Source: an uncultured Veillonellaceae bacterium (GTDB taxonomy: Bacteria > Bacillota > Negativicutes > JARBTT01). From it: a stretch of DNA of 64,000 bases. The stretch spans positions 771,464 to 835,463 of the forward strand of contig CAWDTA010000005.1 of the NCBI GenBank assembly GCA_963805085.1. The letters run 5' to 3'. Of this stretch, positions 23,634 through 58,215 are shown piece after piece. Position 1 is the stretch's first letter, and each line of letters opens with the position of its first letter. A model generated the notes under the pieces. The model was not told where the DNA came from. It saw nothing but the letters and a program-made list of their open reading frames with translations, and did not search any database. Both the position numbers and the translations under genes were made by a program.

Positions 23634-24056
23634 TTATTTAATACTGCTAATAAGATTTAATTTTATATTTATAAGTTCGCTAGTTACGCAAAAAAATTCC
23701 GCTAATTCACAAGTTGTATGTATCCCATTTTGTATAGCTATTTTTAAATCTTTATCATCGATTAAATAATTTGCAGCCTAGCGTAGTGCTTTATATTCGA
23801 CTTTGCTTACATAAAGTCTATTACTATGATTGTAAAATTTTCTAGGAATACAGTCACCTATCGTTGTAAAATGGTGCCCGAGTTCTTCAGCCATAATAGA
23901 TCGAAGAAGCGTCTTATTCTCTTTCAAGGATTTATCTAGCCCAATAACAGGAGGCATGTCAACACCCACAAAATATATGCCTTTTATCGGAGCGAGAAAA
24001 TCGAAAAAGTGGATTTTTATTTTAGATTCATTTGCTAATATAAACATATTATTCAT
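23634..24056 (-). pseudogene. ImmA/IrrE-family metallopeptidase (antirepressor) with in-frame TAG
   Basis: AEELGHH zinc motif; EYKALR*AANYLI with TAG at 23778-23780, then 47 more family-like codons (ELAEFFCVT) to TAA at 23634. Confidence 0.85.
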
Positions 24057-24133
24057 AACATCACATCACATTCATACGAAAAAAGTCGAAACATGTCGAA
24101 AGATATTAAAAGACATAAAACCTACAACTAATA

Positions 24134-24481
24134 TCACTTAGTTGTAGGTTTTTTTTGATATTTAAGACGCATTAATTCTATAAATTCTTCAACGCGTTCT
24201 ATAGCTTCAGGCGGTAGATCATCCATAAGATTATCCTGGCGGTGGAGAGCTATAGTACTTATCTCTGTTTTAATATTCGATTGACTGAGCAAGTAATCAA
24301 TTGAAACATGAAAAAAATCAGAAAAATCTTTTAATGCTGAAACTTCTGGGGTTCTTTTATCGTTCTCAAATTGAGAAATAGCAGCAGCAGTATAAGATCT
24401 ATTATATTCATGATTAAATTGTTGCCTGAATTTTTCTTGTGTCAATTTAAGCTCTAATCTTAATTCTTTAAAACGTGACAA
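24134..24481 (-). CDS. Xre/ImmR-type HTH repressor
   Basis: RFKELR..LKLTQ..AAISQFENDKRTP..FFHVSIDYLL; TTG start after GGAGGTG; upstream of immA. Confidence 0.9.
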   Translation of the reverse strand: MSRFKELRLELKLTQEKFRQQFNHEYNRSYTAAAISQFENDKRTPEVSALKDFSDFFHVSIDYLLSQSNIKTEISTIALHRQDNLMDDLPPEAIERVEEFIELMRLKYQKKPTTK

Positions 24482-24502
24482 AATTATCACCTCCGTTAAT
24501 AA

Positions 24503-24650
24503 ATTATACCATTAAATAAACTTAAATGATATTACTATTTAAGTTTATTTAATGAATAAAAGCATTGACAATTAACTCAAATGATAATAAAATAAATTTA
24601 ACTTAAAAAGAAATAAAAAGGTTGGTTTTATTAGTATTTATTAACTTAAA
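24503..24650. promoter_or_regulatory. Divergent promoters and operator of the genetic switch
   Basis: Leftward TGgTATAAT (24503-24511); rightward TTGACA-N17-TAAAAT (24565-24593); perfect 18-bp inverted repeat 24510-24527/24537-24554; TTAACTYAAA half-sites at 24572, 24598, 24641. Confidence 0.75.
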
Positions 24651-24693
24651 AGGAATTGATACTTGTATTAGGGTTATAGGAGGTGAAAAAGGA

Positions 24694-24789
24694 ATGAAAA
24701 AAATCAATGTTTTTACCCAAAGAGAATATAAATTCTTAGGGATTGTAGTAGTTTTATTTTTCCTAGTCGGGATGTGGATGGCAAAATAA
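24694..24789 (+). CDS. 31-aa membrane peptide (not in ORF track)
   Basis: GGAGGTG RBS; MKKINVFTQREYKFLGIVVVLFFLVGMWMAK. Confidence 0.6.
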   Translation: MKKINVFTQREYKFLGIVVVLFFLVGMWMAK

Positions 24790-24815
24790 TATAAAGATAA
24801 AAGGAGATATGTCAG

Positions 24816-25145
24816 ATGGATGATAGCAAATTTAAATATTTACAAAATAAAGTTGAAAAAGTAAATAAAATACATACGGAAATGGAAAATATTAAAAATA
24901 CGATAAAGTTTCTTTTTAAAATAAATGATGGTGAACAACTCTGTATGGATATTAGTTTTAGTATTACAGGAGATATGCATATATATTCTATTAAAGGAAT
25001 GGGTTCTGAAATGCTATATAATGCTATGAAGGGGCATCTTCTATATGAATTAATAGATCGGCTTGATGAATTGCAAAAGAAATATCAAGATTTACTGGGG
25101 GAAGTAGAATATGGACTTACTAAAAAAATTCATAAGTATATTTAA
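24816..25145 (+). CDS. Hypothetical phage early protein
   Basis: AGGAG RBS; 109 aa; no motif recognised. Confidence 0.65.
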   Translation: MDDSKFKYLQNKVEKVNKIHTEMENIKNTIKFLFKINDGEQLCMDISFSITGDMHIYSIKGMGSEMLYNAMKGHLLYELIDRLDELQKKYQDLLGEVEYGLTKKIHKYI

Positions 25146-25352
25146 TTAGATTTTGATAGAAATAATTGAGGGATTATAAATGAAAAAAAGATTTTAATTC
25201 ACGATAAGATTGATGCTATTTGAATCCATTTATAAAGGCAGTAAGAACGATACTTAAAGCAGCAGAGTTTGAAATAGTTGGACCAATAGCTTTGAAAATA
25301 TAGATGAGAAAATATTTGTCTTATATATTAGGCATTTACGGGGGGATCGATT

Positions 25353-25847
25353 TTGAAAGAATACAGCGATTATGCAGGAATTGTTAAAAGATATTTACAA
25401 AATTACAATCAGCTTAAAGTTACTGTTCTTAATTTAGAGGATGAAAAAAATGCTAAGATAAAGATGCTCGAAGAATATTCTATACCAATAGCGAAGTATG
25501 GAGAGCAGACCGGCGCTAAAACAGTAGAACTAAATCAAACGGAAGCTGCTGCAGATCGACGCTTAAAGATAAAAGAAGAAATTGAAACAGCTAATACAGA
25601 TATAATGGAGATTAAGCGTTTGCTCGGTAAATTAGATAGAGCAATAAATGGACTTATTGATGTTGAACATAGACTTATTGTTGGTTATTTCATTGAAGGT
25701 AAAAGTTGGCGTGATCTTGGGATAGAAATGTATTATACGGAAAAATGGGCACGAGAAAAAGGCAATAAAGCCATTCATAAGATTGCTTTTATGATGTTTG
25801 GTTCTGCGGCGCAATCACAAAAATTGCGATTTGTATTTTGTGGGTAG
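25353..25847 (+). CDS. ArpU/RinA-like late-gene transcriptional activator
   Basis: YLQNY N-terminus, coiled coil, sigma4-like C-terminus (AINGL..EHRLI..YFIEGKSW..LG); directly precedes the putative late promoter. Confidence 0.8.
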   Translation: MKEYSDYAGIVKRYLQNYNQLKVTVLNLEDEKNAKIKMLEEYSIPIAKYGEQTGAKTVELNQTEAAADRRLKIKEEIETANTDIMEIKRLLGKLDRAINGLIDVEHRLIVGYFIEGKSWRDLGIEMYYTEKWAREKGNKAIHKIAFMMFGSAAQSQKLRFVFCG

Positions 25848-25881
25848 ATTTAGACAGTAAAATAACAGCTTTTTATTTCTT

Positions 25882-25972
25882 TTTACTTCCGGTTTTTGCT
25901 TAAATAAAGAGCTATAATAATATCATCAAAAGTTTATAGGTAAACCGCTTACAAATAGATGTAGGCGGTTTT
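25882..25972 (+). promoter_or_regulatory. Putative late promoter/leader, copy 1
   Basis: TTTACTTCCG box 31 bp before TATAAT (25913), then TATCATCAAAAGTTTATAG and hairpin AAACCGCTTAC..GTAGGCGGTTT; repeated at 31025. Confidence 0.7.
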
Positions 25973-26163
25973 CATATTTTATAAGCTTCAACTAAAGTCA
26001 TATTTGATTTGAAGCAAAGCTTCATTTGAAATTTTATTAATTTTAATATGAATGGGATGGAGCAATAGAAATCTATTTGTGATATCCAATGTGCGGTGTG
26101 GTATATATCCGTATAAATAAGAAAACTATATGCTATTTGAAATAGGTAAGAGGAGGAAAAATA

Positions 26164-27459
26164 ATGTCAGAGGAACGTACAACAAAAAATCTAGGGATAC
26201 CACTAATTTTAGGTTCTGATTATGTGATGAAGGATAAGATCAATGACTCAATAAAAACCATTGATAATGTTGTTTTATCCCAGAGCCATGCGGACAGCAA
26301 AGCTCACTTTGATATGTGGCAACCGAATACCGCTTATAAAAAACAAGACGTAGTTAGAACCCCAACCTGTCCGAGTTGGGGTTTTTACATGTGCATAGTT
26401 GCAGGTATATCAGCAATTGTAGAACCTCAAGGCTATGGTGAGGGTGATAGTATTACGGATGGTACAGTTACTTGGGTATTAAAGTTATTTGGCGGATCAA
26501 CATCGATCAAACATAGTGATTTAACAGGCAGAAATTTAGAAAATCAACATGAAATTAAAGCAATTACTGGATTACAAGAAGTGTTAGATTTAACAGTAAC
26601 AAAAGAAAATCTAAAAAAAGCCATTGATGATCTAATCGTGGGTGCGCCAGAAACGCTAGATACACTTAAAGAAATAGCGGATGTTTTAGCAAATGATGAT
26701 AATGCAATAGCTACAATCATGGCGAGTCTATCCGGCAAAGTGGATAAAATCGAGGGTAAAGGGCTTTCGACAAATGATTATTCTGTCTTGGATAAAGCGA
26801 AGGTTGATAAAATAACAATTACAGAAGCTATCGATTTGGATAGTTTAAATAAGCAAGCTCATATGCACAACAACAAAAATTCATTAGATAAATATGGTGA
26901 AAAAAACAATCAGCCAACCTTTAATGGAAAATTAATTCTAGGTGGGGCTTCCAATTGGACTGCAAATACCGAATATGAAATAACCATGCTTATAGTCCAT
27001 GATGGAAAACTTTATCGTTGTAGGATAAATCATGTTTCTGATGATAAATTTAAACAAATTTATTGGGAGGTGTTAAGCAGTGAAGGTGCTGATTTAAAAC
27101 AACTTACAAAATTAAGTGTTATCGCACCAGTTTCTATAGATATTCCTATAAGTTATACCAATAAATTCAGGCTTCCGCCAGTAGAAATTTTGAAATTTAA
27201 CTCACAAGGCGGTGAACAAGATCAACTATTTACAATGTATAACTTTGATAACGCAGATGCAGAGGATTTTGTTGTCGATGGGCAGAGTGCAGTGCTGTTT
27301 GATCAAATTATTTTTGATGGAGTGATGAAGAAAAATACGGAATATGAAATTAAAGTAAATAATCCAGAATTTATGGATGGAAATACGATATGTGAAAGTG
27401 ATTTTATTGATTTTTCGACTTATAAGACAATCGAAAACATACGAGGAGGTTTTTTATAA
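26164..27459 (+). CDS. Tail fibre/anchor protein, cassette A
   Basis: First ~145 aa paralogous to 51436-52581; fibre motifs GAPETLDTLKEIA and KVDKIEGKGLSTNDY; CBM5/12-like W..NT.Y modules. Confidence 0.75.
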   Translation: MSEERTTKNLGIPLILGSDYVMKDKINDSIKTIDNVVLSQSHADSKAHFDMWQPNTAYKKQDVVRTPTCPSWGFYMCIVAGISAIVEPQGYGEGDSITDGTVTWVLKLFGGSTSIKHSDLTGRNLENQHEIKAITGLQEVLDLTVTKENLKKAIDDLIVGAPETLDTLKEIADVLANDDNAIATIMASLSGKVDKIEGKGLSTNDYSVLDKAKVDKITITEAIDLDSLNKQAHMHNNKNSLDKYGEKNNQPTFNGKLILGGASNWTANTEYEITMLIVHDGKLYRCRINHVSDDKFKQIYWEVLSSEGADLKQLTKLSVIAPVSIDIPISYTNKFRLPPVEILKFNSQGGEQDQLFTMYNFDNADAEDFVVDGQSAVLFDQIIFDGVMKKNTEYEIKVNNPEFMDGNTICESDFIDFSTYKTIENIRGGFL

Positions 27460-28154
27460 TGGGAGCACCAGCAAGTAATGGAAGGTTATGTACAAAATTA
27501 AGTGAGATGTTAATTGGGGATTATATAAAATGTGAATATGTAGCATCCACTGCTAATGTAGCAGGAGAGTTTAAAAATTTAGGTTTAGAAAGTAATGAAT
27601 TGTCAGGATTATCCACTAATCCAGCTACGACAGCTAACGGATATTTATATTTTATTAAAGCAGATAAGGGATTATTAATAGCAGACAGGTTGGTACAACA
27701 GTCTATATCTGGACAAGCTTTAAAAAATAAAGGTTATTTAACTGGAACAAAGACTGATTTAGGGTTGATAAGATGTTTATCTAGAGCTGAATTTTTAAAA
27801 TATATTTCTAATTCAGACTTAAATGGAAATATTATAAGGCAAGATGTAAATGTATGGCATTGTACTGCAGGGACAGCTAGTACTAGTTTTAGAAACGTAT
27901 ATCTTCCTATCGAATTAAATACAGACAGGTCAGCGGGCTATATAAATGCATCTCTTTTTGCAGACGGAAGTTTGGTTAACACAACAGGTCTTTTTTCTAC
28001 TAGCTTAGATGGTTATGGATGGGCGACATGTCCTATATCGCAGAAGATGGGTGACACAATTATTAATTTCGGGCGTGGTAATGGGGCTTATATTTGTTTC
28101 AGACCTGCTTTAGAATACATAGATAATACAAAATCGACAAATATTTGGAAATAA
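27459..28154 (+). CDS. Putative receptor-binding accessory protein (single copy of the CEY..ADR..FRP module)
   Basis: IKCEY, FKNLG, LIADRLVQ, CFRPAL; same module is repeated in the next gene; translationally coupled. Confidence 0.6.
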   Translation: MGAPASNGRLCTKLSEMLIGDYIKCEYVASTANVAGEFKNLGLESNELSGLSTNPATTANGYLYFIKADKGLLIADRLVQQSISGQALKNKGYLTGTKTDLGLIRCLSRAEFLKYISNSDLNGNIIRQDVNVWHCTAGTASTSFRNVYLPIELNTDRSAGYINASLFADGSLVNTTGLFSTSLDGYGWATCPISQKMGDTIINFGRGNGAYICFRPALEYIDNTKSTNIWK

Positions 28155-28173
28155 TAAAAGTGTGGTGAAAAAT

Positions 28174-30891
28174 ATGGCTACTATTACGGCATTAGAAATA
28201 GTAACAGATATTAAAAATATACAACCAAATCAAGCAATATCATGTGAATATACTGCCGCAACATCAGGAGCTTTCGGAACCTTTGCTAATTTAGGAAAAG
28301 CAACTAAGGCATTCATCGATGTAACTACAAATCCGACATTTGTAGATGGATCGTTTTACTTCGTGTGTGTAGGATATACACCGGATGGAAAAATAAAATT
28401 GGTGGCCGATAGAAATATCCAAGCAAATATAGCATGGGAAGCTTTAAATACAGCAGGTTTATGTACAACGGTTCCTAGTGAAGTATCAATTGATGGTAAT
28501 TCAACAAATTACTCTATGAGGCTAATCGGATCATCTCTACAAAATGATAATACTTATAATGGTGAATATGACGCTATTATCTTAAATTACGATTTAGGAG
28601 GAAAAATAAGTAAAGGTGATTCTGAGTTTTGGTATACAAGTGTTCCGTCTTGGACGCTCAATACACCTGCATTTGCAGATGATACGCGAATAGCAACTAA
28701 TGTGGCGCAAAGAATACAACGTGGTGGAACGGCGCCTTCAACTATCACGAATATCGTATCAAGTACAGCTTCTGCAATTTGTGGGTTCAGACCGGTTTTA
28801 ATCTATGACTCAACGCCTGATGTATTTACGAGAGGGACACCAGGTTGTCCACTAGAATTAGTGAATGATATCAAAAAAATTAAGCCAGGACAGGCTATTT
28901 CATGTGAATATATTTCAACCGCCAATACATTTGGTACATTTGCTAACCTTGGAAAAGCTATAAAATCGAATCTTTCAGATTTAGCACCAGAAATGCCAGA
29001 TGGAACTTTTTACTTTATCTGCGTCGGCTATACGCCAGCAGGAAATTTAAAGCTTATTGCTGATCGTAATATTCAAGGAAAAATAGCGTGGGAAACGCTG
29101 AATAGTACGGGGCTTTGTACTAGTGCGGGAGTAAAAATCAATATTGATGCTATGGACGGTATGACGATGCGAATCCTCCATACAATTGCTGATCGACATG
29201 TGGATGCAGAAAATCATGGTGAATGGGACGAATTTATCTCTTATCATGACTTAGGTGGTATCATCGTGCCTTCGGATAGTGACGTTTGGAATTGTTTATC
29301 CACGAAATCCTGGACCTTGGCAACCTTAGCAACTGTCGATGACATAGGAACAGTAGCAGCGCCAAGCTTAAGAATTGCACGAGGGTCTCAGGATAAAAAT
29401 ATAAATCCAGTTACAATGAGTCAAAGTAAATATGACAGTAGTTCAGCGAATCAATATGTCGGCTTTAGGCCGGTTCTAATATATAATTCAACTCCCAATA
29501 TATTTACGAGAGGGACACCGGCTTGCCCGTTAGAGTTAGTTAGTGATATCAAAAAAATTAAGCCCGGACAGGCTATTTCATGTGAATATAGTGCCAAAGC
29601 AGGTGCTTTTGGTGAATTTAAGAATCTTGGAAAAGCTACAAAATCTAATCTTTCAGATTTAGCACCGGAAATAGCAGATGGCACTTTTTATTTTATATGC
29701 GTTGGCTATACGCCAGCAGGAGATTTAAAACTGGTTGCAGATCGTAATATTCAAGGAAAGATAGAATGGGAAATGCTAAATAATGCAGGGCTATGTACAA
29801 GCTCGGGACTAGAAATCAATATTGATGATATAGATGGTATGGTAATGAGAATTCCTCATACCATTGTTGACCGGCATGTGGATGCAGAGAATCACGGTGA
29901 ATGGGATGAAGTTATTTCTTATAATAACTTAGATGGTGCCATCACACCATCGGATAATGACGTTTGGAATTGTTTATCCACGAAATCCTGGACTTTGGCA
30001 ACCTTATCAACTGTTGATGACATAGGAACAGCAGCAGCGCCAAGTTTAAGAATCGCACGAGGTTCTCAGGACAAAAATGTAATTAGAATGAGTCAAAGCA
30101 AATATGATAGTAGTTCGGCTAATGAATATGTCGGTTTTAGACCAGTTTTAACTGTAAAAAGAGAAAGTCGTTTTTTATATTTAAAAGAGGATAATAGTTG
30201 TTATAAAGTTGTAAATGATGTTTTGACCAAGGTGAGCGAAGATTGGTCTGCGCTTACAGACGCGGACAAACAAAATTTATTTAAGTCTGGCGAGCAAAGT
30301 ATTGCAAAAGCAACTGCTTTGAAACCATTGCAAAAATTTAAAATTCTTGCCTATACATTGGGCAAAGAGGAACGAGCAACATTAAAAATTTCAGCTGTAC
30401 CTTTCGATAAAATACTCTTTCCTGTAGGACTTTTGCCTATTGATAGTTTTGAAGGAATTGACAAGGTATCTATAAAGGGGAAATTCTCTGGCAAGGGAAA
30501 ATGTAAAGTGCTCGTTACCACAGATTTGACGCATTATAAAACATTGAAAGATGGGATATGGCAAAATATTGACCCTACCAATATTGCTGCGGTAAAAAGT
30601 GATGGGATTGATACACAAACGATTTCGTCCATTACTCGAAGTGAGTGGGATGCATTAACGACAGAAGAAGTAGGAATTGGATTTGCCTATTTGCCGATGA
30701 TTGAAAGTATAAGTGACCAGTGTGAAATAGATGAGCTTATTATGCAAGTTGACATGAAAGGTAGCTGGGATATGGCAATGCCAGGCACAGATTATACATA
30801 CGGGTATCCGCGCAATAACGTTTTGCGTGTTAAATTATTAACCAACGGAGATTATAAAATAAATTATAGCCAAGGTGTAATTGAGCTTTAA
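28174..30891 (+). CDS. Large putative receptor-binding protein with three tandem ~220-aa modules
   Basis: Three repeats of LE.V.DIK.I.P.QAISCEY...ADRNIQ...GFRPVL plus a C-terminal domain resembling part of 53485-55581. Confidence 0.65.
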   Translation: MATITALEIVTDIKNIQPNQAISCEYTAATSGAFGTFANLGKATKAFIDVTTNPTFVDGSFYFVCVGYTPDGKIKLVADRNIQANIAWEALNTAGLCTTVPSEVSIDGNSTNYSMRLIGSSLQNDNTYNGEYDAIILNYDLGGKISKGDSEFWYTSVPSWTLNTPAFADDTRIATNVAQRIQRGGTAPSTITNIVSSTASAICGFRPVLIYDSTPDVFTRGTPGCPLELVNDIKKIKPGQAISCEYISTANTFGTFANLGKAIKSNLSDLAPEMPDGTFYFICVGYTPAGNLKLIADRNIQGKIAWETLNSTGLCTSAGVKINIDAMDGMTMRILHTIADRHVDAENHGEWDEFISYHDLGGIIVPSDSDVWNCLSTKSWTLATLATVDDIGTVAAPSLRIARGSQDKNINPVTMSQSKYDSSSANQYVGFRPVLIYNSTPNIFTRGTPACPLELVSDIKKIKPGQAISCEYSAKAGAFGEFKNLGKATKSNLSDLAPEIADGTFYFICVGYTPAGDLKLVADRNIQGKIEWEMLNNAGLCTSSGLEINIDDIDGMVMRIPHTIVDRHVDAENHGEWDEVISYNNLDGAITPSDNDVWNCLSTKSWTLATLSTVDDIGTAAAPSLRIARGSQDKNVIRMSQSKYDSSSANEYVGFRPVLTVKRESRFLYLKEDNSCYKVVNDVLTKVSEDWSALTDADKQNLFKSGEQSIAKATALKPLQKFKILAYTLGKEERATLKISAVPFDKILFPVGLLPIDSFEGIDKVSIKGKFSGKGKCKVLVTTDLTHYKTLKDGIWQNIDPTNIAAVKSDGIDTQTISSITRSEWDALTTEEVGIGFAYLPMIESISDQCEIDELIMQVDMKGSWDMAMPGTDYTYGYPRNNVLRVKLLTNGDYKINYSQGVIEL

Positions 30892-31024
30892 GAATCATTA
30901 CAGAAGCTATTTTTATAAATCATGTGTGGAGTAACTGTAAAATTTCAGTTGTTATCGAAATAAAGAGTATCATTAAGGCTATTTGGCAGTAAAAAAACAG
31001 CACTTTTAAGGTTTTTTCGTTCGG

Positions 31025-31114
31025 TTTACTTCCGTTTTTTTAGTTATCGAGGTGTTATGATAGTATCATCAAAAGTTTATAGATAAACCACTTACAAGAT
31101 ACGTAGGTGGTTTT
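31025..31114 (+). promoter_or_regulatory. Putative late promoter/leader, copy 2
   Basis: TTTACTTCCG 31 bp before TATGAT (31056, extended TG), TATCATCAAAAGTTTATAG, hairpin AAACCACTTAC..GTAGGTGGTTT. Confidence 0.7.
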
Positions 31115-31233
31115 GTTTTTTAGGACTGACTATAGATTTTTAATAGTAGCAGCTCAAGGAGGAATGCGGAGCAATAAAATTCATTTAGTTAAGTGGCTAG
31201 TTAAAATATTTAAAACAAAGGAGGTATACCTAC

Positions 31234-31614
31234 TTGAATTTAGATGCGAAACAAAAGCTATTGTTAGCGATTTATATTGAATATCAAAAAGATATCCCCG
31301 ATATGGGTTTACTATCTAATGCAATATTAGATATGGATGAGAAGTCCTTTCGGGTTGCTTTAAATAAATTACAGAGCGAAAGTCTAATCTCGGGGACGAA
31401 ACTTCATTTTATGAGAAATGATCCTTATCCAAATGCGGAAAATACACAGTTTGTTCAGATGACGCGAGAAGGAATTGAATTTGCAGAAGAAAAAATGAAA
31501 ATTGATAAATTTTTATCTGGCAAAGAGAAACTTGAAGTATTGCAAGGAAAATTTAGTGATTTAGGTTGGACAGCATTAAGTGATTCTGTAAATAAGGCTT
31601 TAGCTGAAATGTGA
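31234..31614 (+). CDS. YjcQ-like winged-helix protein
   Basis: AIYIEYQK, FRVALNKLQSESLISG, MTREGIEF; AAGGAGGT RBS, TTG start. Confidence 0.55.
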   Translation: MNLDAKQKLLLAIYIEYQKDIPDMGLLSNAILDMDEKSFRVALNKLQSESLISGTKLHFMRNDPYPNAENTQFVQMTREGIEFAEEKMKIDKFLSGKEKLEVLQGKFSDLGWTALSDSVNKALAEM

Positions 31615-31719
31615 AGACGAAGGGATTTATATAAAATATTTGTGAATTCATCCTAAGATCATTTTGATGTAGTCAGTTTTCAAATCTATAAAGGAGGTGG
31701 TGCGTTTGATTGCCATAGT

Positions 31720-31753
31720 TACCGCAAGAGCTTGCTCTTAGCGGTATTTTTTT
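31720..31753 (+). terminator. Intrinsic terminator upstream of the tail tube gene
   Basis: TACCGCAAGAGC-tt-GCTCTTAGCGGTA followed by T7. Confidence 0.75.
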
Positions 31754-31840
31754 ACCTATAAAATTTACTAATGAAGAACTAGAAATTTTATAGAATATCC
31801 AATTACATTATATTTTTTAAAATTATGGAGGAATAAGTAA

Positions 31841-33010: not shown

Positions 33011-33136
33011 AAGATTGTCTCAATAAGACCGTCCTAATTGGGCGGTCTCAATTCTATTGTTTCGAGTAAAATATTTTTAGTACAGTCTAGGTTTAGCGTG
33101 TCTGTCCTTATGTAAAAATAAAAATTTTAAGGAGAA

Positions 33137-33592
33137 ATGAAAATGCCCAAAAAAAACAGCTTAGAAATTTTAACGCAAAATGGTGCTGAAATTATCATAA
33201 AAGGGGAAGCGTTAGAAATAAAAGCTTTTAAATTAGTTGATTTACCTAAATTTACTTTGGCTTTGCAAACGATTATGAGTGATGTATTTGCATTACTTGA
33301 ACCTGGCAATGGCATTGTTTTTGAAAAAGGAAAAGCTATATCTATTAATCAAGAAGGTTGGAATTTAATAAATCAAGCGATTGAAAAAAATATAGAATCT
33401 CTTACGACAATCTTGGCAGCTTATACCAGAAAACCGCGCGAATGGTTTTTAGATGAAAAAGTGGGTATTGATATTGAGGAGGCGATACTCTTAATTTTTG
33501 CAATTCTTGAAAATCATTATGATTTTTTTACGAAGCGCTTAGCGCCGATTGTCAACAAAATCAAGGCAAAACAGCTTCCGGAGAAGAAGTAG
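33137..33592 (+). CDS. Tail assembly chaperone (gpG-like)
   Basis: Between tube and tape measure; ends near slippery GAT TTT TTT ACG. Confidence 0.8.
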   Translation: MKMPKKNSLEILTQNGAEIIIKGEALEIKAFKLVDLPKFTLALQTIMSDVFALLEPGNGIVFEKGKAISINQEGWNLINQAIEKNIESLTTILAAYTRKPREWFLDEKVGIDIEEAILLIFAILENHYDFFTKRLAPIVNKIKAKQLPEKK

Positions 33593-33792: not shown

Positions 33793-33797
33793 AATAA

Positions 33798-38684: not shown

Positions 38685-38766
38685 AATGAATGAAGCCTTC
38701 TAATATAGTTGGAGGATTCATTCATGTAGTATCGAGGGAAGAATCTCTAATCCTAAAGCAGTGCTT

Positions 38767-44115: not shown

Positions 44116-44127
44116 GGAAGTGAGAAA

Positions 44128-45204: not shown

Positions 45205-45216
45205 GAGTGATGCGTT

Positions 45217-46158: not shown

Positions 46159-46164
46159 AGAATT

Positions 46165-48279: not shown

Positions 48280-48289
48280 GAGTGAGAAA

Positions 48290-51200: not shown

Positions 51201-51421
51201 TGGGGCAAAAAGTATTGCAGGCGGCTACTAATACAGTTCTATGCTATGACGGTAGTTATATTATTCCGGACGGACGAGCGATGTTAATTAAAAATGATAC
51301 TGAGCATGATTTTGTTAGTCTGGAAACTGGTTTTGTTTTAAGAACGAAATTTAAAGAACCTAATATGAAAGCAGAGAAATATTTACAGTGGAATGGTACG
51401 CAGTTCATTGAATTAATATGA
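48290..51421 (+). CDS. Central tail fibre/host-specificity (gpJ-like) protein
   Basis: GTPIPVILGT, GFKYYLG, LFGGPDENGG, PAYR, DINPA, WGL, LIRND, RGVYDTVP..H; 1043 aa. Confidence 0.8.
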   Translation: MALNPYAGWGLSTLALYFLNKSSKSQSDSSSLKPSDLNVTETKIGTPIPVILGTSLIKSPLTIYYGDFRAEAYTETYAAHANFSAWPLVFALIAQYIAAPSTTVGNGGGPVKTSGGAGSCTVTIAGKDMAVGPLINALFMWLLSWLINGRNLKTTLQKGFKYYLGYQQLICWSGENVKLKKIYMNEELVWEGSVGAKEQNGSALVIPINNDQLFGGPDENGGFVGEIHVYFGGANQMPDAWMVNQMQADSIQQELRGLTPAYRPFISVVIPSAYVGKQATVPTMWYEIENIPDHLGLGRVDEDINPAEAFYEMHVNKNWGLAESEEILNLDALKEIGETLQEEKIGITLPLTSKVTAGQIIDSICEHINAVKFIEPKDGKLTYRLIRNDLNQYKTDEELPEDQKNLKEIFLLNESNISTISFSRLDWRETVSEISATYTDRSALYETGSLSDTDQANVEINNGIQTTKTYSYPYFTKAENALWAAKRELMQQGYPLATASVEGNRNLYMLRLGDICCLNFPAYGIKNMLFRVTDVNLGNFTDGKIKIELMEDIFSLAKTDFNFSDSTEWKPEPLYPTGVQAFNYFELPYEIMQIKDTYVFAFAAKPDLKTQAWTIWRKRAGENFETTNTMSKWTATGRLIYDYDAFGNAEDLTGIEIIDLGGIEDLRFSALSDSATNIVSARRGGKLLMMGNELMAWSNIAQIPNGNWRVQGIIRGVYDTVPERHGNGEIIYFIESGHYANVTTGGPVCHERNIVDEFYNITTSTVNEKEDFDNAKVRRLTTVRRAERPSPPGKIRMNAHLLYEQVNTSKIAGDLNIKWFARNKQFSFGCVSQDDEKEYWSSTAFTPPVGLEYIVNVYVDDKQIKEYTLPDTASIFEYSWAQRAIDGGNLAGITGETTIEIYAKLNDLLSYQAQKRTFNWSIPTMVNGVVDEQTALKCISNWGDTAEIVVPQNTASDEQYVKYVNLPVILLGQKVLQAATNTVLCYDGSYIIPDGRAMLIKNDTEHDFVSLETGFVLRTKFKEPNMKAEKYLQWNGTQFIELI

Positions 51422-51435
51422 TGGGAGGAAAGATA

Positions 51436-52581
51436 ATGGCGGAGGAAAGTGTAACAAAAAATCTAGGACTACCGCTAATTTTAGGCTCCGATTATGTGAT
51501 GCGGGAGAAAATTAACGATTCGATAAAAACCATTGATGATGTTGTTTTACCCAAAGCGCATGCAGATAGCAAATCGCATTTTGATATGTGGAAACCTAAC
51601 ACAGTCTATAAAAAACAAGATATAGTCAGAACCCCGACTTGTCCGAGTTGGGGCTTTTATATGTGCAGTGTTGGTGGAACGTCTGGAACCGTAGAGCCAC
51701 AAGGATACGGTGAGGGTGATATCGTTACAGACGGCACTACTGCATGGATATTAAAACTATTCGGTGGGGCAACCTTCATAAAACATCAGGATTTACAAGG
51801 GCGTAATTTTGCAAATCAACACGTGATTAGTGCAATTACTGGATTACAAGAAGCGTTAAATTTAAAAGAAAATACATTAAACAAGGGACAGGCTGGTGGC
51901 TATGCTGAGTTAAATTCAAGTGGTTATGTACCAATGTCTCAATTACCTCCAAATGTTAAAGAAATGCGGGTAGTTAGTAATATAGCTGACCGTAACGTCA
52001 TCAATGGAACCAATCTATATGACGGTCTACAAGTTCACGTTGTAGATGCTACTGGAGATACTACCGTTACGTCTGGATGGGCTGAATATATTTATGACGC
52101 TACTAATACTACTTGGATTAAAAGAGCTGAAAAAGAAAGCATGGATGTGGTGCTAAAATGGGATAACATCCAAGGTATTCCTAATGTAGTAGCTGGCTTG
52201 TCAGATCATAATGACAAATTAGACTATAAAGGGGCGCTAGTATATGAAGATATAAGAACAGTAGTCTTCGTGGGGGGCGAAACTGAAATAATGTATCCGT
52301 GGAATGGCACAATACAAAAAATCGCGGTCATTTGCTCTGAGCCACAAACCGCATCTTTATTGTTTAATGTTGAAATGCAATCAAAAGCAAATTATGTTGC
52401 AAAGTCAGATATATGGTCACTGGTTGGGGGGAGTGCATTAACATTACCAAAAAGTACTTCATATCAAGAATATAGTGGCTTGTCTACCAATATGTCCATA
52501 TCATCTGGCGATGTTATCAGAGCTTCAACCGCTGGAGACGACACTGGTGTTGTTTTCCACGTAACTATAAAAAATAATTAA
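51436..52581 (+). CDS. Tail fibre/anchor protein, cassette B
   Basis: N-terminus paralogous to 26164-27459; NKGQAGGYAELNSSGYVPMSQLP fibre motif; ATG after GGAGG. Confidence 0.75.
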   Translation: MAEESVTKNLGLPLILGSDYVMREKINDSIKTIDDVVLPKAHADSKSHFDMWKPNTVYKKQDIVRTPTCPSWGFYMCSVGGTSGTVEPQGYGEGDIVTDGTTAWILKLFGGATFIKHQDLQGRNFANQHVISAITGLQEALNLKENTLNKGQAGGYAELNSSGYVPMSQLPPNVKEMRVVSNIADRNVINGTNLYDGLQVHVVDATGDTTVTSGWAEYIYDATNTTWIKRAEKESMDVVLKWDNIQGIPNVVAGLSDHNDKLDYKGALVYEDIRTVVFVGGETEIMYPWNGTIQKIAVICSEPQTASLLFNVEMQSKANYVAKSDIWSLVGGSALTLPKSTSYQEYSGLSTNMSISSGDVIRASTAGDDTGVVFHVTIKNN

Positions 52582-52604
52582 AAAATTTAAGGGGGAATTT
52601 TATT

Positions 52605-53471
52605 ATGGCTATACCAACAAATTATATTTTTACTTCGGGAACTTGTGCAAAATCAGCAATATATCAACTTATTATCGACAAATTAACTTCTGCAGGGTGG
52701 AGTAATGTGGCGTCTTTAGCTAGTTCTGATTTTGTAGTAATGAAATCAAAAGGAAACACTGGAGATAAAAATTTAATATTAAATCTTAGAGACACAAGCT
52801 CTACTGCAGCAAATTCGATAGTGACCACTGATTATTGTTGTATGTCCTATAGATTACAGGATACTTATGTGCCGGGGGCGGCAGGTGTAGCAGGGACATT
52901 TGGTAGACCAGCTTTAGCGTGGACTAATTTATATATCGTCCCTGTAGCAGTTACAACTACTTTGGGTAAAGACACAGTTGTTAATTATAAAGTTTATGCG
53001 GATGCGAGTAAGCTAATTTTAGAAATAGAGTATCCATCTCCTACGTTGATAGCTCCATTATTAATTTATATTGGTGAACCAGATACGATATATGTTAGCG
53101 ATTCAAATTCTAGTGGTGTATTAGTAGCGACAACATCGCAGAGTGTTGCAGCATCTCAGTTACTTATTTCTAACACTTCGGATACTGTAGCATCTGTAAC
53201 CGTTCCATATAATTTAACAACATATGCTTTGTTACCTCCTGGTGACCCTAACGTATGCAGTAGATATATGGCATCACCTATTTACTACGGTAGTGTAGCT
53301 GAAGGTTTTAGAGGTAAACTGGATGGAGTTAAATGTTGCTATTATTCTGGTACTAATTTTATTACAGGAGATACTATTACAATAGGAACTGTCAATTACT
53401 ACGTAGTTGTTGCGGCATCTGTGGGTGCAACATCATTTCCAAGTAGGGCATTGCTTATTCAGATAGCATAG
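52605..53471 (+). CDS. Tail fibre-associated structural protein
   Basis: KLTSAGW, GFRGKLDGV, GDTITIG..NY resemble the 41539-42480 family. Confidence 0.55.
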   Translation: MAIPTNYIFTSGTCAKSAIYQLIIDKLTSAGWSNVASLASSDFVVMKSKGNTGDKNLILNLRDTSSTAANSIVTTDYCCMSYRLQDTYVPGAAGVAGTFGRPALAWTNLYIVPVAVTTTLGKDTVVNYKVYADASKLILEIEYPSPTLIAPLLIYIGEPDTIYVSDSNSSGVLVATTSQSVAASQLLISNTSDTVASVTVPYNLTTYALLPPGDPNVCSRYMASPIYYGSVAEGFRGKLDGVKCCYYSGTNFITGDTITIGTVNYYVVVAASVGATSFPSRALLIQIA

Positions 53472-53484
53472 GAGGTAAATCCTA

Positions 53485-55581
53485 ATGGCTACAAGATTTT
53501 ATGAATTTGGAGGGCTATCATCTGTCAACGGTGTTTTCACCGTTGATGGAGTTAGTCATACTTATTCGTTTTCAGGAACTTATGGTGGAAATGATGCTAG
53601 TTACGCAGTAGATATAGATTATGGTAGTCAATGGACAGGAAATTATTATTATGCTGAATGTGCATGGCAAATAAACTTTTCAAGTTCCTTTTATAATTCT
53701 TTTAAATTACTTAATTTATCTATGTATCTCTGGCTAGAAAACCCTTGTGCTTTATTTGCATATGATGATAGTAGTTGGACCATGATAGCATATTTACCTC
53801 GTGGTTGGACGAATGGCGTAGTAGTTCAATATGAGCAGCATCAAGGTAAGAAATATAGTGCTTTTAAACTTTACAAATATAATTCTAGTAGCTATAGAAT
53901 GAGATTATACGACATTAGATTTACATTTGAAGCTAATGATTATGAGGTAATTAAAAGGAAAGGTTTTGAATTAGAGTCGCTTGAAAGTGGAAGAAGAACA
54001 GAGTGGTTTGATAACGGCTTCGCTTTGGATGATATTGAAATTGCCTCAATATCTAACCTAAAGGAAACTGGATTATATATAGAAGGTCCTCGAATTGGGG
54101 TTTTTGGTAATACCAACAATAAAGGTTTAGAAATAGAAAATGTTGAAATAGGTAATATTTATAATAAAATCGTTACGGGGCTAGATATAGGAGAATTTGA
54201 TAACGCTACTTTCACTCATTTTAATGGTATAGCAAATTCGTCTGGTGAAATAGAAATATCCACCATTAAACATTTTCAGGGTAATGGTAATGATACAGGG
54301 GTAGATGATGCTAGTGATATTTCAAGAAATGTTACAGCAATTGATGTATACGTTGAGCCTGGTGGTGATGTTTTACGTATTAGAGCAGGTAACGATGTGG
54401 GTCTAGATACAGCTGGTAATCGTTATTCTAATGTACGGGGGATTGAAGTAGATAATATAGAAGCTAGCTCAACTGCAATATATAGATATGCTTTAACTGT
54501 AACACCAACTCATCAATATAAAAATATGCCAGTAAAGGTGTCTTTAGTTAGCCGGTCTACCGTTGGCATATATGGTAGATACAGCGTAATATTGAATGAT
54601 TCTGTTATTATTCAACCTGCAGCAATTAATGCAGCTATGAATAATATAGATTTTGTAATTACTCCTAGTCAGTTAACCATAGGAATTAACAAAGTAAGAA
54701 TAAAATTGCTATATTCAGATGGGGTACAAGAGTATTTAGATTTTGAAGTGCTTAAGGAAGAATCTAAAAGGACAGTAGTAGAAAGATTATTTCGTGATTA
54801 TGATGGGGGATTTACTGGAAATGGTTATGCTCCACCCCAAATATTAATACCAAATATTTATCCAAGTTGGTTTGCAACGATCAATTCACCTACTAGTTTA
54901 ATGAAAACAACTGATTATACGAGAATATCACTAGCTCATTATACTGCAATGCAAGGGGTGTCAATTGTAGGCAGTGGTTTGTCAATATTAGTAAGTTTTG
55001 ATAAAGGGGCAACATGGGAATCTTTTATCAATAATGTTTGGACTCCAGTTGATGTTTCAAATATAGCAATATATGGGATGACGGTTGAAGCGATTAATGG
55101 CATAACAATAGCCCAATGGACAGACATTTTTACACCGACTTCAATTGATTTTGCTGTATATTTCAATGATAATTCGTTGAATAACTTTTATGCATTAGAA
55201 ACAAGCCCTAGCATAGTGTTATATGGGGCTACCAATCTTACGCTAACTAATAATTTAACAACCACTATACAGATTCCAGATGGTTATATGGCGACTAAAA
55301 TAACATCGGCTGATAAAGGAGGGAGCATTAACCCATCATACCCTGTAATTAGAACAATATATAGCAATATACACCCGACCGGATATGCTTATGAAATGCC
55401 TGGTAGCTGCGTTTATTCCGCACAAACAGGTGAACGCGTTAGTAAAGTTACTTTTTATCGTTACAATGGAACTGCTTGGATTATGGTAACGGTTAAAGGA
55501 CAACCAGTTAAAGCATACCTTAAATCAATCACCGTAAATATGATCCCAAGTCCATTTACAGGATACGCTTTTATTATTTAA
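53485..55581 (+). CDS. Large putative receptor-binding protein, cassette B
   Basis: Beta-rich 698 aa; VSFDKGATW...YGMT..IN.I..QW domain resembling the C-terminus of 28174-30891. Confidence 0.55.
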   Translation: MATRFYEFGGLSSVNGVFTVDGVSHTYSFSGTYGGNDASYAVDIDYGSQWTGNYYYAECAWQINFSSSFYNSFKLLNLSMYLWLENPCALFAYDDSSWTMIAYLPRGWTNGVVVQYEQHQGKKYSAFKLYKYNSSSYRMRLYDIRFTFEANDYEVIKRKGFELESLESGRRTEWFDNGFALDDIEIASISNLKETGLYIEGPRIGVFGNTNNKGLEIENVEIGNIYNKIVTGLDIGEFDNATFTHFNGIANSSGEIEISTIKHFQGNGNDTGVDDASDISRNVTAIDVYVEPGGDVLRIRAGNDVGLDTAGNRYSNVRGIEVDNIEASSTAIYRYALTVTPTHQYKNMPVKVSLVSRSTVGIYGRYSVILNDSVIIQPAAINAAMNNIDFVITPSQLTIGINKVRIKLLYSDGVQEYLDFEVLKEESKRTVVERLFRDYDGGFTGNGYAPPQILIPNIYPSWFATINSPTSLMKTTDYTRISLAHYTAMQGVSIVGSGLSILVSFDKGATWESFINNVWTPVDVSNIAIYGMTVEAINGITIAQWTDIFTPTSIDFAVYFNDNSLNNFYALETSPSIVLYGATNLTLTNNLTTTIQIPDGYMATKITSADKGGSINPSYPVIRTIYSNIHPTGYAYEMPGSCVYSAQTGERVSKVTFYRYNGTAWIMVTVKGQPVKAYLKSITVNMIPSPFTGYAFII

Positions 55582-55641
55582 ATACTAATTCTTAGAAAGA
55601 GCCGATATAGGCTCTGTTTTTTATGCTGAAAGGATGATGAT

Positions 55642-56070
55642 ATGTTAGATTTTTTTTTGAACATGTATACAGTAACTGAACTTAAAATATTAGCGGTTGC
55701 GGGGGTTTTAGGCACAATATTTGCAAAGACAATAGGTGGTTTTGATATTCAAGTAAAAATGCTTATGTTATTTGTATTTATCGATTATGTAACAGGAATG
55801 TATGCCGCTTGGAAAGCAAAACAATTGTCAAGCCAGATTGGATTTAAGGGTATAGGGAAAAAGGCAACTATCTTTGCGGTAGTTGCCTTTTTCTATGGTG
55901 CTGATTTATTGTTTAACACCAATACCTTGCGTTACATGGCGATATGTGCTTATGGCGTACTTGAATTAGTTAGTATTGTCGAAAATGCTGACAAAGGCGG
56001 CTGGGGTAATTTATTCCCATATTTCGTTAGAGAGAAATTGGCTCAAATAAAAGAAGAAAAGAAACTTTAA
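55642..56070 (+). CDS. Phage holin (toxin secretion/phage lysis family)
   Basis: IDYVTGM.AA, SSQIGFKGIGKK, ELVSIVENA; TM helices; precedes lysin. Confidence 0.9.
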   Translation: MLDFFLNMYTVTELKILAVAGVLGTIFAKTIGGFDIQVKMLMLFVFIDYVTGMYAAWKAKQLSSQIGFKGIGKKATIFAVVAFFYGADLLFNTNTLRYMAICAYGVLELVSIVENADKGGWGNLFPYFVREKLAQIKEEKKL

Positions 56071-56093
56071 TTTATGAAAGAGGTCGATGAAAA

Positions 56094-56609
56094 ATGAAAA
56101 TTTGTATCAACGCAGGGCATTGCCCAGGACTTGATAGTGGTGCTATAGGAGCATTTTTGCAGGAGGCAGATGTAGTAAAAAATATTGCTGAAATCGTATG
56201 TAGGGATTTACGAGCAGCCGGCTATGAAATTTTATTCGTACAGGAAAATGAACTTGCAGATATCACTAATGCAAGCAATACATTTTGTGCTGATTTATTC
56301 GTGTCGTTACATTGTAATGCGGCTGCTAACACTGAAGCGAAAGGAACAGAAACGTTTTGCTATGCTTCCGGCGGTGCAGGTGACTCGCTAGCTTTTTGCA
56401 TTCAAAATCAGATTGTAAATTCGCTGGGTACTGTTGATCGTGGCATAAAATACAGTACTGAATTGTATGTACTTAAACATACTGATTGCCCAGCAGTTTT
56501 GGTTGAAACAGCGTTTGTCAGTAATGCTGATGATGAGCAGTTACTTGCAAATCGTCAAATTGATTTTGCGCATGCCATTTCAAGGGGCTTAACTGATTAT
56601 TTCGCGTAG
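56094..56609 (+). CDS. Endolysin, N-acetylmuramoyl-L-alanine amidase (Amidase_3), catalytic domain only
   Basis: NAGH, E, FVSLHCNA, GTET, LYVL, PAVLVETAF. Confidence 0.92.
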   Translation: MKICINAGHCPGLDSGAIGAFLQEADVVKNIAEIVCRDLRAAGYEILFVQENELADITNASNTFCADLFVSLHCNAAANTEAKGTETFCYASGGAGDSLAFCIQNQIVNSLGTVDRGIKYSTELYVLKHTDCPAVLVETAFVSNADDEQLLANRQIDFAHAISRGLTDYFA

Positions 56610-56698
56610 AAAGTTAAGTCCATATAAATGAAAACGCATAAATCGAATCCTAAGAGGTCGATTTTAAGTTCTTTATTAATTTTAGGAGGTTTTTTGAA

Positions 56699-57355
56699 AT
56701 GGATGAAAAAGAATTAGCCGAAAAAGTTATGAAAGAAACAGCACAAAAAGTCGAAATATTACCAACGCGCATAAAAGTAACCATAGCTATTTGGGCTATG
56801 GCTTTACTTTTTCTAGGCGGATACCTTATTTATGAATATTTTTTTGCTAAACCGCAGTTAGATACATATGAAAGCCAGCAACAAGCCGAAACATCTCAAG
56901 GTGTAAAAGAAGCTGCTAATAATGCACATGTTGATATGCTGCAGAGTCAGCTAGATGAAGCAGCAAAACAAATTGCCGCACTCAAAAATAAGGGACCGGA
57001 TACTATAACGCATACAGTTGTACAGCAAGTGCCTGTCGTCGTTGAAAAAGAACGGCAGAAGTCTGGTGCTGATTTTGTTATTATTACAAATCCTAAAAAT
57101 CCAGATCAGAAAGTAGATTTATCGCAGTACAAAGAAAATGATCCGATTGTACTCAATCAATATAACGTACATGCATATAAAAAAATATTGCGGCAAGTTG
57201 ATTATGCACCTAAAAACGTGGATAATTGGACACCTGCCGAAGTTGGATATTCAGTATCAAGAAAGATATCGAATGATGGCAAATATTTAGGTGTTGCTGT
57301 TGACCATAATTTTGACAATAAAAAAACAATTGTTAAATTGAGATATACTTATTAA
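56699..57355 (+). CDS. Membrane-anchored lysis-cassette protein (spanin-like candidate)
   Basis: N-terminal TM, coiled coil, C-terminal beta strands; follows holin and lysin. Confidence 0.5.
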   Translation: MDEKELAEKVMKETAQKVEILPTRIKVTIAIWAMALLFLGGYLIYEYFFAKPQLDTYESQQQAETSQGVKEAANNAHVDMLQSQLDEAAKQIAALKNKGPDTITHTVVQQVPVVVEKERQKSGADFVIITNPKNPDQKVDLSQYKENDPIVLNQYNVHAYKKILRQVDYAPKNVDNWTPAEVGYSVSRKISNDGKYLGVAVDHNFDNKKTIVKLRYTY

Positions 57356-57492
57356 ATTTATTTTAAGTTAAGTTTAAACATTGCGATCAGAAAAATATCT
57401 ATATAAGTAAAAGTCGATATATAGGTAATATGCAGTGCAAATAAGAGCTTCTTAAATATACAAAAATAATAATTTATTTGGAGGATTGTAAA

Positions 57493-58158
57493 ATGGCGAC
57501 AGTAGGACAAGTTCTAACCGCTCCGGAAGAAGGATGGAGAAGATTAGACGATAGAGATAAAAATATAAGTTATATAGGAACATGGACAACAGATGCAATT
57601 TCTGGTGAATATAATACAACTATAACGGTTATCCCAGAAGGTGTTTCTGTGGATGTGGTAAATTCTAGCTCAATAAAATTTAACTTTACAGGAACATCAA
57701 TAAGATTTATTCATTCTAAGCATCCACAACATTCAAAAACTATTAGTTATAAAATAGATGGTGAATTAGTATGTACGGCAAATATGGATAATGATACTGT
57801 GATTAGACAAATTTTAGGACTTGAAAAAACAGATTTAGTGAATAAAGAACATTCTGTAGAAATATATTCAGGTGATGGGATACGATTTGATTTTGATTGC
57901 CTAGATATAGATGCTACCGGAGAACTTAAACCATATTCACGTGGCAAAGTCTTATTAAGAATCACCATGAATGATTCTAGTGAACGAGAGTATTATTTAC
58001 TTGATTATGAAGCTGATGAATTTGTCAAATGGTGTAATCGTACTGTTGATACAGGAAATTCGTATTATATTTTTAATAAGGCTGTTGGTTCACAAAATAG
58101 CAAAGAGTATTTATTCTTTGAAAAAATTATTAGCTTTGGAGTAATTGAGCTTAAATAA
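57493..58158 (+). CDS. Hypothetical protein with beta-sandwich (carbohydrate-binding-like) domain
   Basis: GGAGG RBS; FNFTGTSI..IDG..EHSVEI pattern; C-terminal LLRITMNDSSEREY domain. Confidence 0.6.
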   Translation: MATVGQVLTAPEEGWRRLDDRDKNISYIGTWTTDAISGEYNTTITVIPEGVSVDVVNSSSIKFNFTGTSIRFIHSKHPQHSKTISYKIDGELVCTANMDNDTVIRQILGLEKTDLVNKEHSVEIYSGDGIRFDFDCLDIDATGELKPYSRGKVLLRITMNDSSEREYYLLDYEADEFVKWCNRTVDTGNSYYIFNKAVGSQNSKEYLFFEKIISFGVIELK

Positions 58159-58164
58159 TGCTAG

Positions 58165-58215
58165 AAAAAACAGCGTAACTAGGTACTTGAATTAGTACTT
58201 GGTTACGCTGTTTTT
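58165..58215. terminator. Long bidirectional terminator
   Basis: AAAAACAGCGTAACTAGGTACT...AGTACTTGGTTACGCTGTTTTT. Confidence 0.85.

Follow-up and report, generated by a model that had tools for sequence, protein, structure and literature searches.

In this study, we analyzed a 64-kb stretch of DNA from an uncultured Veillonellaceae bacterium (hereafter the window; G000:C5:771464-835463, its right edge being the contig end) and found that it carries a 34.7-kb prophage-like element, which is a probable F-type tailocin. With moderate confidence, and from genes and their comparison across genomes, we read the element as the immobile descendant of a temperate Negativicutes siphophage that lost its head genes and has been kept by selection as a factory of tail-only particles. 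F-type tailocins, for example the F-pyocins, monocin and rhizoviticin, have been characterized far less often than R-type ones, and the element is a candidate for the first F-type tailocin in Negativicutes. If it is indeed a tail-only weapon of a diderm Firmicute, the class of such weapons would extend to a new lineage, and narrow-spectrum killing particles would come within reach for anaerobic Negativicutes. A literature search recovered no paper pairing the terms tailocin or phage tail-like bacteriocin with Negativicutes or Selenomonas, and the papers co-mentioning tailocin and Veillonella were, by title and abstract, reviews on other subjects. Within that search for tailocin terms and Negativicutes, the statement of an original prediction made from this DNA, that no such system had been described in the class, was borne out.

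A non-contractile tail cluster without head genes

The element holds 29 open reading frames (ORFs) between 23.6 and 58.2 kb of the window, 27 of them on the + strand (Table 1). Its tail is of the siphovirus type without a sheath, comprising tube, G and GT chaperones, tape measure, tip and fibres. PHROG and Pfam profile scans covered the 29 ORFs (23778-58158) and one more ORF at 58214 just outside the element, and no terminase, portal, major capsid, sheath or integrase family was matched among the 29 ORFs. The PHROG scan for head and packaging genes had been proposed as a check in the original prediction, and its outcome agrees with the tail-only, non-contractile system claimed there. The matches that PHROG labels head and packaging were to phrog_687 (three times), phrog_9130, phrog_20658 and phrog_22602, generic 'structural protein' or 'decoration' families, and homologues of phrog_687 and phrog_9130 located in complete prophages lie within the tail module. 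The locus had also been described as passing from the activator directly to tail genes; no head gene lies between them, but a fibre cassette and a winged-helix gene precede the tube gene.

Likewise, PF05065 (Phage_capsid), the TerL families phrog_2 and PF03354 and the portal families PF04860 and PF05133 were not found in the 4.2-Mb host genome (five contigs, 83% complete by marker count), and the control genomes were positive for every capsid, TerL and portal family searched. Head proteins of related prophages gave no tblastn match in the host genome. Together this is strong evidence that head genes are absent genome-wide, short of absolute proof because the assembly is 83% complete by markers. 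It bears on the explanation, which we regard as improbable, that a complete virus or some other element makes use of the tail genes, with the heads encoded in unassembled DNA or the tails supplied in trans to capsids of a phage or satellite. Although the genome is incomplete, the window ends at a contig end beside group II intron and insertion sequence (IS) genes, and the contig of a second copy of the element (G041, described below) is cut by IS copies at both ends, the canonical head slot from late regulator to tube gene is fully sequenced here, the three neck and terminator genes needed for head joining are missing together with the head genes, and neither a capsid, portal or terminase family nor a homologue of the relatives' head proteins was detected in the five contigs. 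A gene transfer agent (GTA)-like system, which the RcGTA-type tip domains (DUF2460, BR0599 and Rcc01698_C) might suggest, is extremely improbable: the Pfam matches are to families common to RcGTA g12, g13 and g15, yet the same tip domains occur in ordinary siphophages, and the capsid, portal and terminase with which RcGTA packages host DNA, all required for such a system, were found neither in the locus nor in the genome.

Several ORFs were considered as hidden head proteins and rejected. The 403-aa (amino acid) ORF is FliB (NF038110), and the 909-aa and 231-aa ORFs consist of repeats of a fibre-associated domain. The 126-aa ORF, which occupies the slot of the relatives' neck and terminator genes, gave a winged-helix model (predicted local distance difference test, pLDDT, 86.7) with weak fold matches to MarR/PadR and to B. 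subtilis YjcQ (2hgc; Foldseek, all E > 0.001), and the fold assignment suggested by this model is a modest one. Sequence searches of PDB with the 126-aa and 909-aa proteins returned no match.

Head-bearing relatives and probable separate head losses

Homologues of the tube protein were searched for in 401 genomes of the class, of which 14 were positive; G013, whose contig ends at the tube gene, and G202, with a 51-aa fragment, were left out of the count of head-bearing and headless loci. At 10 loci (G004, G039, G088, G218, G061, two in G222, G186, G190 and G214), a head module of portal, MuF, scaffold, capsid and three neck genes lies directly upstream of the tube gene, with TerS or TerL also matched at nine of them, and Megamonas sp. 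UBA1796 (DCFU01000048.1) and Propionispira arboris DSM 2179 (NZ_FNZK01000006.1) likewise carry the head module. The tail modules of the complete Negativicutes prophages are collinear with that of the element (tube, chaperone, tape measure, post-tape-measure gene, seven tip genes, fibres and lysin) at about 25-81% amino acid identity, whereas none of the genes of the full head module that precedes their tube gene is present in the element. Because homologous tails at 10 loci adjoin full head modules, the element, judged by its gene content, is a Negativicutes siphophage from which the integrase, the neck genes, the entire head module and almost every early gene have been lost. These prophages also qualify the earlier likening of the BR0599/gpJ tip to those of proteobacterial siphophages: the best matches of the tip proteins among phage records are to proteobacterial phages, but the combination is not a special one, the same tail module being present in complete Negativicutes prophages.

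Three more loci, found in two genera of Negativicutes other than that of the element, namely G138:C15 (~15-36 kb), G053:C281 (~24.7-45.2 kb) and G053:C223, look headless while having full tail modules (loci L123, L128, L132, L139 and L143-L150). In the 12 kb upstream of their tube genes, capsid, portal and terminase had no match, and the matches seen there were to the tube-adjacent neck gene only, plus a scaffold-like stretch in G138. With G004 and G039 as positive controls, the phrog_29 capsid was found nowhere in the G138 and G053 genomes, and their TerL matches lay on other contigs only. At G053:C281, a phrog_36-type regulator stands directly before a terminator-like gene and the tube gene. 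In a tube-protein tree (a quick tree with midpoint root, one long branch and support from the SH-like approximate likelihood ratio test, SH-aLRT, only), the headless loci occupy three separate positions among the prophages with heads and at least three changes are needed, pointing to at least three separate head losses in this tail lineage. Together, the complete prophages, the recent deletions of the head and the copy that is under purifying selection would provide a natural series for the study of phage domestication.

Purifying selection between two copies

The second copy, G041 (IMG/VR UViG_3300033481_000119, i.e., Ga0316600_10000230; 31,318 bp), is collinear with window 26152-58215 at ~89-93% nucleotide identity (about 92%). 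It has the derived junction of fibre cassette A, yjcQ-like gene and tube gene, and differs from the element in lacking fliB and having an extra small duplication. We paired 22 of the 25 + strand genes (26164-58158) between the two copies, leaving out those at 38193 (no clear orthologue) and 53485 (too diverged) and fliB. All 22 genes are intact in both copies, and pooled synonymous divergence (dS) was 0.24 and nonsynonymous divergence (dN) 0.042, giving a dN/dS of 0.17 (range 0.015-0.44). A neutral simulation in which all sites evolved at the synonymous rate (200 runs) led to an expectation of ~189 premature stops (150-223) and 0.3 of 22 genes intact. This comparison, which supplies the dN/dS check on the tail genes proposed earlier, indicates purifying selection and supports the view that the genes have been kept intact in the headless state, G041 being seen only from fibre cassette A on. 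The distal fibre genes are the most divergent between the copies, as expected for specificity determinants.

In addition, Logan contigs from four metagenome runs were aligned to window 22001-42000. In run X2, a 2283-bp contig spans 23323-25615 (host Asp23 end, ImmA, repressor and start of the late regulator), a second connects 25981 with the fibre gene over a gap of 154 bp, a 3513-bp contig spans 29640-33012 (end of the 909-aa gene, cis element R', yjcQ and tube gene), and a fourth skips fliB. In run X3, one contig of 499 bp, with 4 differences, links the regulator end to the fibre-gene start (25811-26310). Joints with only 21 letters on one side (26047>31771, 28009>31806 and 27353>33967) were not used. 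The runs may not be independent of the G041 source. A search for RNA runs containing window 25353-35352 returned none.

An inert prophage remnant, in which integrase, early and head genes were deleted and the rest is decaying or silent with no host function, at least in this strain, is in our view unlikely. Decay of this kind would not readily leave every paired gene intact in copies differing at ~21% of synonymous sites, at the dN/dS and against the number of expected stops given above. Moreover, loss has been confined to head, replication and integration functions, with the switch, late regulator, cis elements, frameshift site and lysis genes kept, and the same architecture recurs in the further metagenome contigs. 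A remnant would nevertheless be compatible with a nonsense codon in ImmA, with the lack of an integrase, an att repeat and a terminator gene, with the absence of the element from the sister species G001, with an IS insertion beside the fibre cassette in G041, with a foreign fliB insert within the tail module, and with a second, clearly eroded remnant elsewhere in the genome.

Several observations weigh against the tailocin reading. First, codon 93 of the ImmA gene is an in-frame TAG (23778-23780, TGG>TAG), where Trp is found in all six homologues compared, and this copy may be uninducible and its switch dead, or the TAG may be a sequencing error. The lineage owns a working protease because the 140-aa ImmA of the relative P0001, which is 99% identical and has Trp at codon 93, is intact. 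Second, neither a tail terminator nor a neck protein could be identified in the element, and the relatives' gene at the terminator position (conn3) has no tblastn homologue in the host genome. Third, dS varies among genes (0.03-1.1), a sign of recombination with other phages or elements, and because of this spread part of the purifying-selection signal could have been imported. Fourth, the G041 contig ends in IS fragments, at the left an IS110-like piece, 95% identical to copies in G000, that stops ~10 bp before the fibre-gene ribosome-binding site directly ahead of fibre cassette A, and at the right an IS3-like fragment after the terminal hairpin. This contig starts at fibre cassette A, and head genes may lie further upstream there. 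The metagenome contigs are short, and no single one spans the whole left half. In addition, the same-genus sister species lacks the element, the host assembly is incomplete with the window reaching a contig end, and the particles and their outer-membrane killing role are predicted ones.

Insertion site and host

Relative to the same-genus genome G001, the element is an insertion at 23514-58210, limits that nearly coincide with the 23634-58215 first proposed. The left flank matches G001 contig C263 at 98% over window 17049-23513, and 81 bp after this match homology to window 58211-58379 resumes. The empty site in G001 (C263, L114; between matches to window 23513 and 58342) contains the 58211-58462 segment three times in partial form. 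Between these copies lie inserts of 3.4 and 2.3 kb, which encode small proteins whose N-termini resemble signal peptides, and an IS fragment. Because of these inserts and partial copies, the insertion spot is a variable region, and because the sister species is without the element, the element is an accessory island and not a fixed locus in the genus. The earlier statement that att repeats are lacking also holds: no att-like repeat was found between the element ends, the longest common exact word being 8 nucleotides, which was equalled or exceeded in 177 of 200 shuffles. No tRNA was found in the window.

The host genes to the left of 23.5 kb are RNase Y, YmdB, pepA, a PHP-domain gene and an Asp23 fusion. 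The proposed check of synteny at pepA-PHP-Asp23 was answered in part, by the empty site in G001; a complete prophage at this locus was not found in relatives, for which flanks of only 10-24 kb were examined, and homologues of pepA, PHP or Asp23 were absent from these fetched flanks of the relatives' prophages. On the right, window 61043-64000 holds a gene of the transposase HTH type and, cut off by the contig end, the reverse transcriptase of a group II intron (RVT_N, RVT_1), and the assembly break there was probably caused by repeats. The host genome encodes LpxC, and a lipopolysaccharide-bearing diderm related to Selenomonadaceae is supported as the host, in agreement with LpxC and with the closest tail homologues, which are in Megamonas and Propionispira; the probable diderm Firmicute of the original prediction is thereby upheld.

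Regulation and proposed mode of action

The element has regulators and lysis genes of its own, namely repressor, late regulator, two cis elements, holin and amidase, besides the ImmA gene that is interrupted here and intact in the 99%-identical relative. Its left end is organized like an ImmR/ImmA-type switch, in which one operon holds an HTH repressor gene and, after it, an M78 metalloprotease gene, truncated in this copy. A metalloprotease antirepressor had been predicted: the ImmA gene is there, while the premature TAG qualifies its function in this copy. ImmA homologues carry PF06114 and the motif AEELGHH, and a suspected broken motif (EELGH instead of HExxH) was dropped, the motif AEELGHH being carried by all ImmA/IrrE-annotated homologues. 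A promoter-like site, TTGACA-17-TAAAAT, lies at 24565-24593 before the 109-aa gene. The predicted ArpU-like activator is a late regulator by PHROG families 36, 248 and 79 only; its assignment to ArpU was not sustained, with no NCBIfam match at E<=0.01 and no Pfam match.

Cis element R lies just after the late regulator and before fibre cassette A. The 19-mer core that it shares with R' occurs exactly twice in the 4.2-Mb genome, at R and R'. An R-type element is kept in G041, as seen in the alignment, and another is present in the complete provirus L024, located 3' of a regulator 62% identical to that of the element and just before TerS and TerL. From this arrangement, we infer that both late operons answer to the element's own regulator, and the weak Q-like PHROG match suggests that late control may operate through antitermination.

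On the tailocin reading, the CI-like HTH repressor would silence the locus until the co-transcribed ImmA-family protease removes it on a stress signal, and a short rightward early transcript would then yield the late regulator. This regulator would act on R and R', each with a promoter-like box and a hairpin with a U run, thereby switching on fibre cassette A and the long operon of yjcQ-like gene, tube, tape measure, tip, cassette B and lysis genes. The tube would polymerize round the tape measure, with the help of the G/GT chaperones, on a DUF2460/BR0599/gpJ-type tip decorated by two fibre types with one common N-terminal anchor, and holin, amidase and membrane protein would lyse the producer cell. 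Released tails are predicted to attach to related strains through receptors in the outer membrane, to eject the tape measure together with its NlpC/P60 domain and, by breaching the envelope, to kill. In this genome, the ImmA nonsense codon has possibly silenced induction. As features of the design, the two copies of the late control element and the paired fibre cassettes lend themselves to direct testing.

A broader proposal, which we consider doubtful enough to be offered only tentatively, is that one siphophage tail lineage gave rise to tail-only weapons at least three times (the element with G041, the G138 locus and the two G053 loci), with a two-warhead design in the present case: two fibre cassettes on one anchor, each late operon behind its own promoter-plus-terminator copy that the Q-like regulator would read through. 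If so, Negativicutes would hold an undescribed, recurrent family of outer-membrane-targeting F-type tailocins.

Comparison with known tailocins

F-pyocins use PrtN/PrtR regulators, in contrast to the ImmA/HTH pair of the element, and their tip is of the lambda M-L-K-I type, as opposed to the DUF2460/BR0599 type of the element. Against the lambda-type M-L-K-I-J set, compared by family and not with the pyocin proteins, the element has a gpJ-like Phage-tail_3 protein, and its other tip genes match DUF2460/BR0599/phiJL001-gp84N and phrog_687. The F-pyocins of Pseudomonas aeruginosa and the element are both non-contractile tail-only clusters with regulators and lysis genes; no tail terminator is detectable in either, as reported for the F-pyocins, and both have a gpJ-type central fibre and variable, duplicated fibre-end genes as determinants of specificity (bioRxiv 10.1101/2021.02.16.431561). 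F-pyocins lie at a fixed trpE-trpG locus in their species (bioRxiv 10.1101/2021.02.16.431561).

Monocin, encoded by the ftb cluster of Listeria monocytogenes, has the same Firmicute-type layout as the element, regulators being followed by tail and then holin-lysin genes; it is an F-type particle, and its regulators include a shared anti-repressor (PMC11830787; PMC9043618). It is equipped with FtbF as terminator cap and, for the monoderm wall, with a baseplate like that of TP901-1 (PMC11830787). The element is set apart from it, by description, through a tip as in phages of diderms, a weakly spanin-like membrane protein after the lysin and the lack of a detected terminator; no FtbF-like tube-fold terminator precedes the tube gene, where the YjcQ-like winged-helix model stands instead. 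Judged by gene content, the element is neither a monocin nor a GTA, and probably not an F-pyocin.

Its origin, by contrast, appears to most resemble that of rhizoviticin, the F-type tailocin of Allorhizobium vitis VAR03-1, a functional tailocin encoded by a chimeric prophage that lacks a head and is related to intact prophages (PMC10811719). By description and not by sequence, both are headless prophage-like islands, with tail and lysis genes homologous to those of the relatives' intact prophages, a regulatory part of other ancestry than the tail part, no working integrase and a strain-variable location (PMC10811719). As to the regulatory part, the element's regulator and cis element resemble those of L024, a provirus without a gpJ homologue. 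Early genes of replication type, needed for expression, are kept in rhizoviticin, whereas the early region of the element is reduced to two genes, and the activity of rhizoviticin is proven, whereas that of the element is predicted (PMC10811719). The element differs further in its Negativicute host and in a second fibre cassette with its own late cis element before the tube gene.

Organization of the tail, fibre and lysis genes

The coordinates of all features are collected in Table 1.

Table 1. Features of the tail-only element and its boundaries in the window.
Feature	Position	Strand	Basis and remarks
Whole element	23514..58210	.	insertion relative to G001; junction sequences read
ImmA/IrrE-family (M78) metalloprotease gene	23634..24056	-	phrog_87; 140 aa if read through TAG
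HTH_3 (CI-like) repressor, 118 aa, no peptidase domain	24134..24490	-	Pfam HTH_3, phrog_8/3/4
First rightward gene, 109 aa	24816..25145	+	no significant family in PHROG, Pfam and NCBIfam scans
Late-gene regulator, 164 aa	25353..25847	+	phrog_36 (4e-15), phrog_248 'activator', phrog_79 'Q-like'
Cis element R, ~140 bp	25848..25985	+	conserved boxes, TATAAT-like box, then hairpin with T run 25942-25971
Fibre cassette A: 431-aa fibre (shared N-terminal anchor, CBM_5_12), 231-aa and 909-aa proteins	26164..30891	+	PHROG/Pfam
Cis element R', second copy of R	30990..31127	+	hairpin 31085-31113; precedes yjcQ-like gene and tube gene
YjcQ-like winged-helix protein (putative), 126 aa	31234..31614	+	Pfam YjcQ just under cut-off; Atlas score 0.92
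Major tail (tube) protein, immunoglobulin-like domain	31841..33010	+	phrog_807, 1e-40; 62% identical to G004 prophage protein
Tail assembly chaperones G (33137-33592) and G-T (T extension 33523-33792)	33137..33792	+	phrog_1442
Tape measure protein, 1444 aa, internal NlpC/P60 peptidase domain	33798..38132	+	TMP_3, NLPC_P60, tape measure PHROG families
Two tandem paralogues (163, 167 aa) and 72-aa gene	38193..40064	+	no family match
FliB-type flagellin lysine-N-methylase, 403 aa, accessory insert	40248..41459	+	NF038110, 278.7 bits vs cut-off 85; Atlas 0.97
Four tail-tip structural genes: three phrog_687 paralogues and 313-aa protein	41539..46158	+	full-length homologues in G004/G039 tail modules
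Tip core: DUF2460-like distal tail (402 aa), BR0599/phiJL001-gp84N hub (301 aa), gpJ-like central fibre (1043 aa)	46165..51421	+	
Fibre cassette B, canonical position: 387, 288, 698 aa	51418..55581	+	same place after gpJ in L030-L032
Lysis region: holin (Phage_holin_4_1), Amidase_3 endolysin, 218-aa protein, 226-aa phrog_10059 protein	55642..58158	+	
Terminal hairpin with T run	58162..58215	+	G041 homology stops here

The phrog_30895 domain forms three ~225-aa repeats in the 909-aa protein, with the 231-aa gene as a fourth copy, and the 909-aa protein has a fibre-type C-terminus matching a G004 fibre. Over its first 150 residues, the cassette A protein of 431 aa has ~76% identity with the N-terminus of the 51418 fibre's orthologue in G041, and in the window the 431-aa gene and the 51418 gene of cassette B share ~77% nucleotide identity. 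Because this N-terminal anchor is shared and follows gpJ in complete relatives, both fibre sets would dock at one site, giving one particle type with two receptor-binding options.

Within the tail module, the G-T chaperone frame is reached through a -1 slip site, T_TTT_TTT, at 33523-33529, with the T frame opening exactly at the heptamer and staying open to 33792. The 163-aa and 167-aa paralogues match a single G004/G039 gene, which follows the tape measure in relatives. In G041, the region 12293-13554, corresponding to window 38193-39451, shows a further duplication carrying an 81%-identical fragment of the tape-measure 3' end. The fliB insert has a low GC content and is absent from G041, and tblastn found no other fliB copy in the host genome. 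There are seven tip genes in all (41539-51421), and the gpJ-like protein has Phage-tail_3 and Rcc01698_C domains. The 218-aa protein of the lysis region is a single-pass membrane protein with a weak Rz-like match. A PADLOC scan gave weak partial matches only.

Elsewhere in the host genome, complete prophages of the common types appear to be absent. The genome has a second, more eroded prophage remnant at G000:C2:1758000-1779000 (L022, L023), which comprises a repressor paralogue (43% identical), a helicase, a dCMP deaminase, two tail-fibre fragments, three phrog_10059-like genes and an endolysin 73% identical to that of the element.

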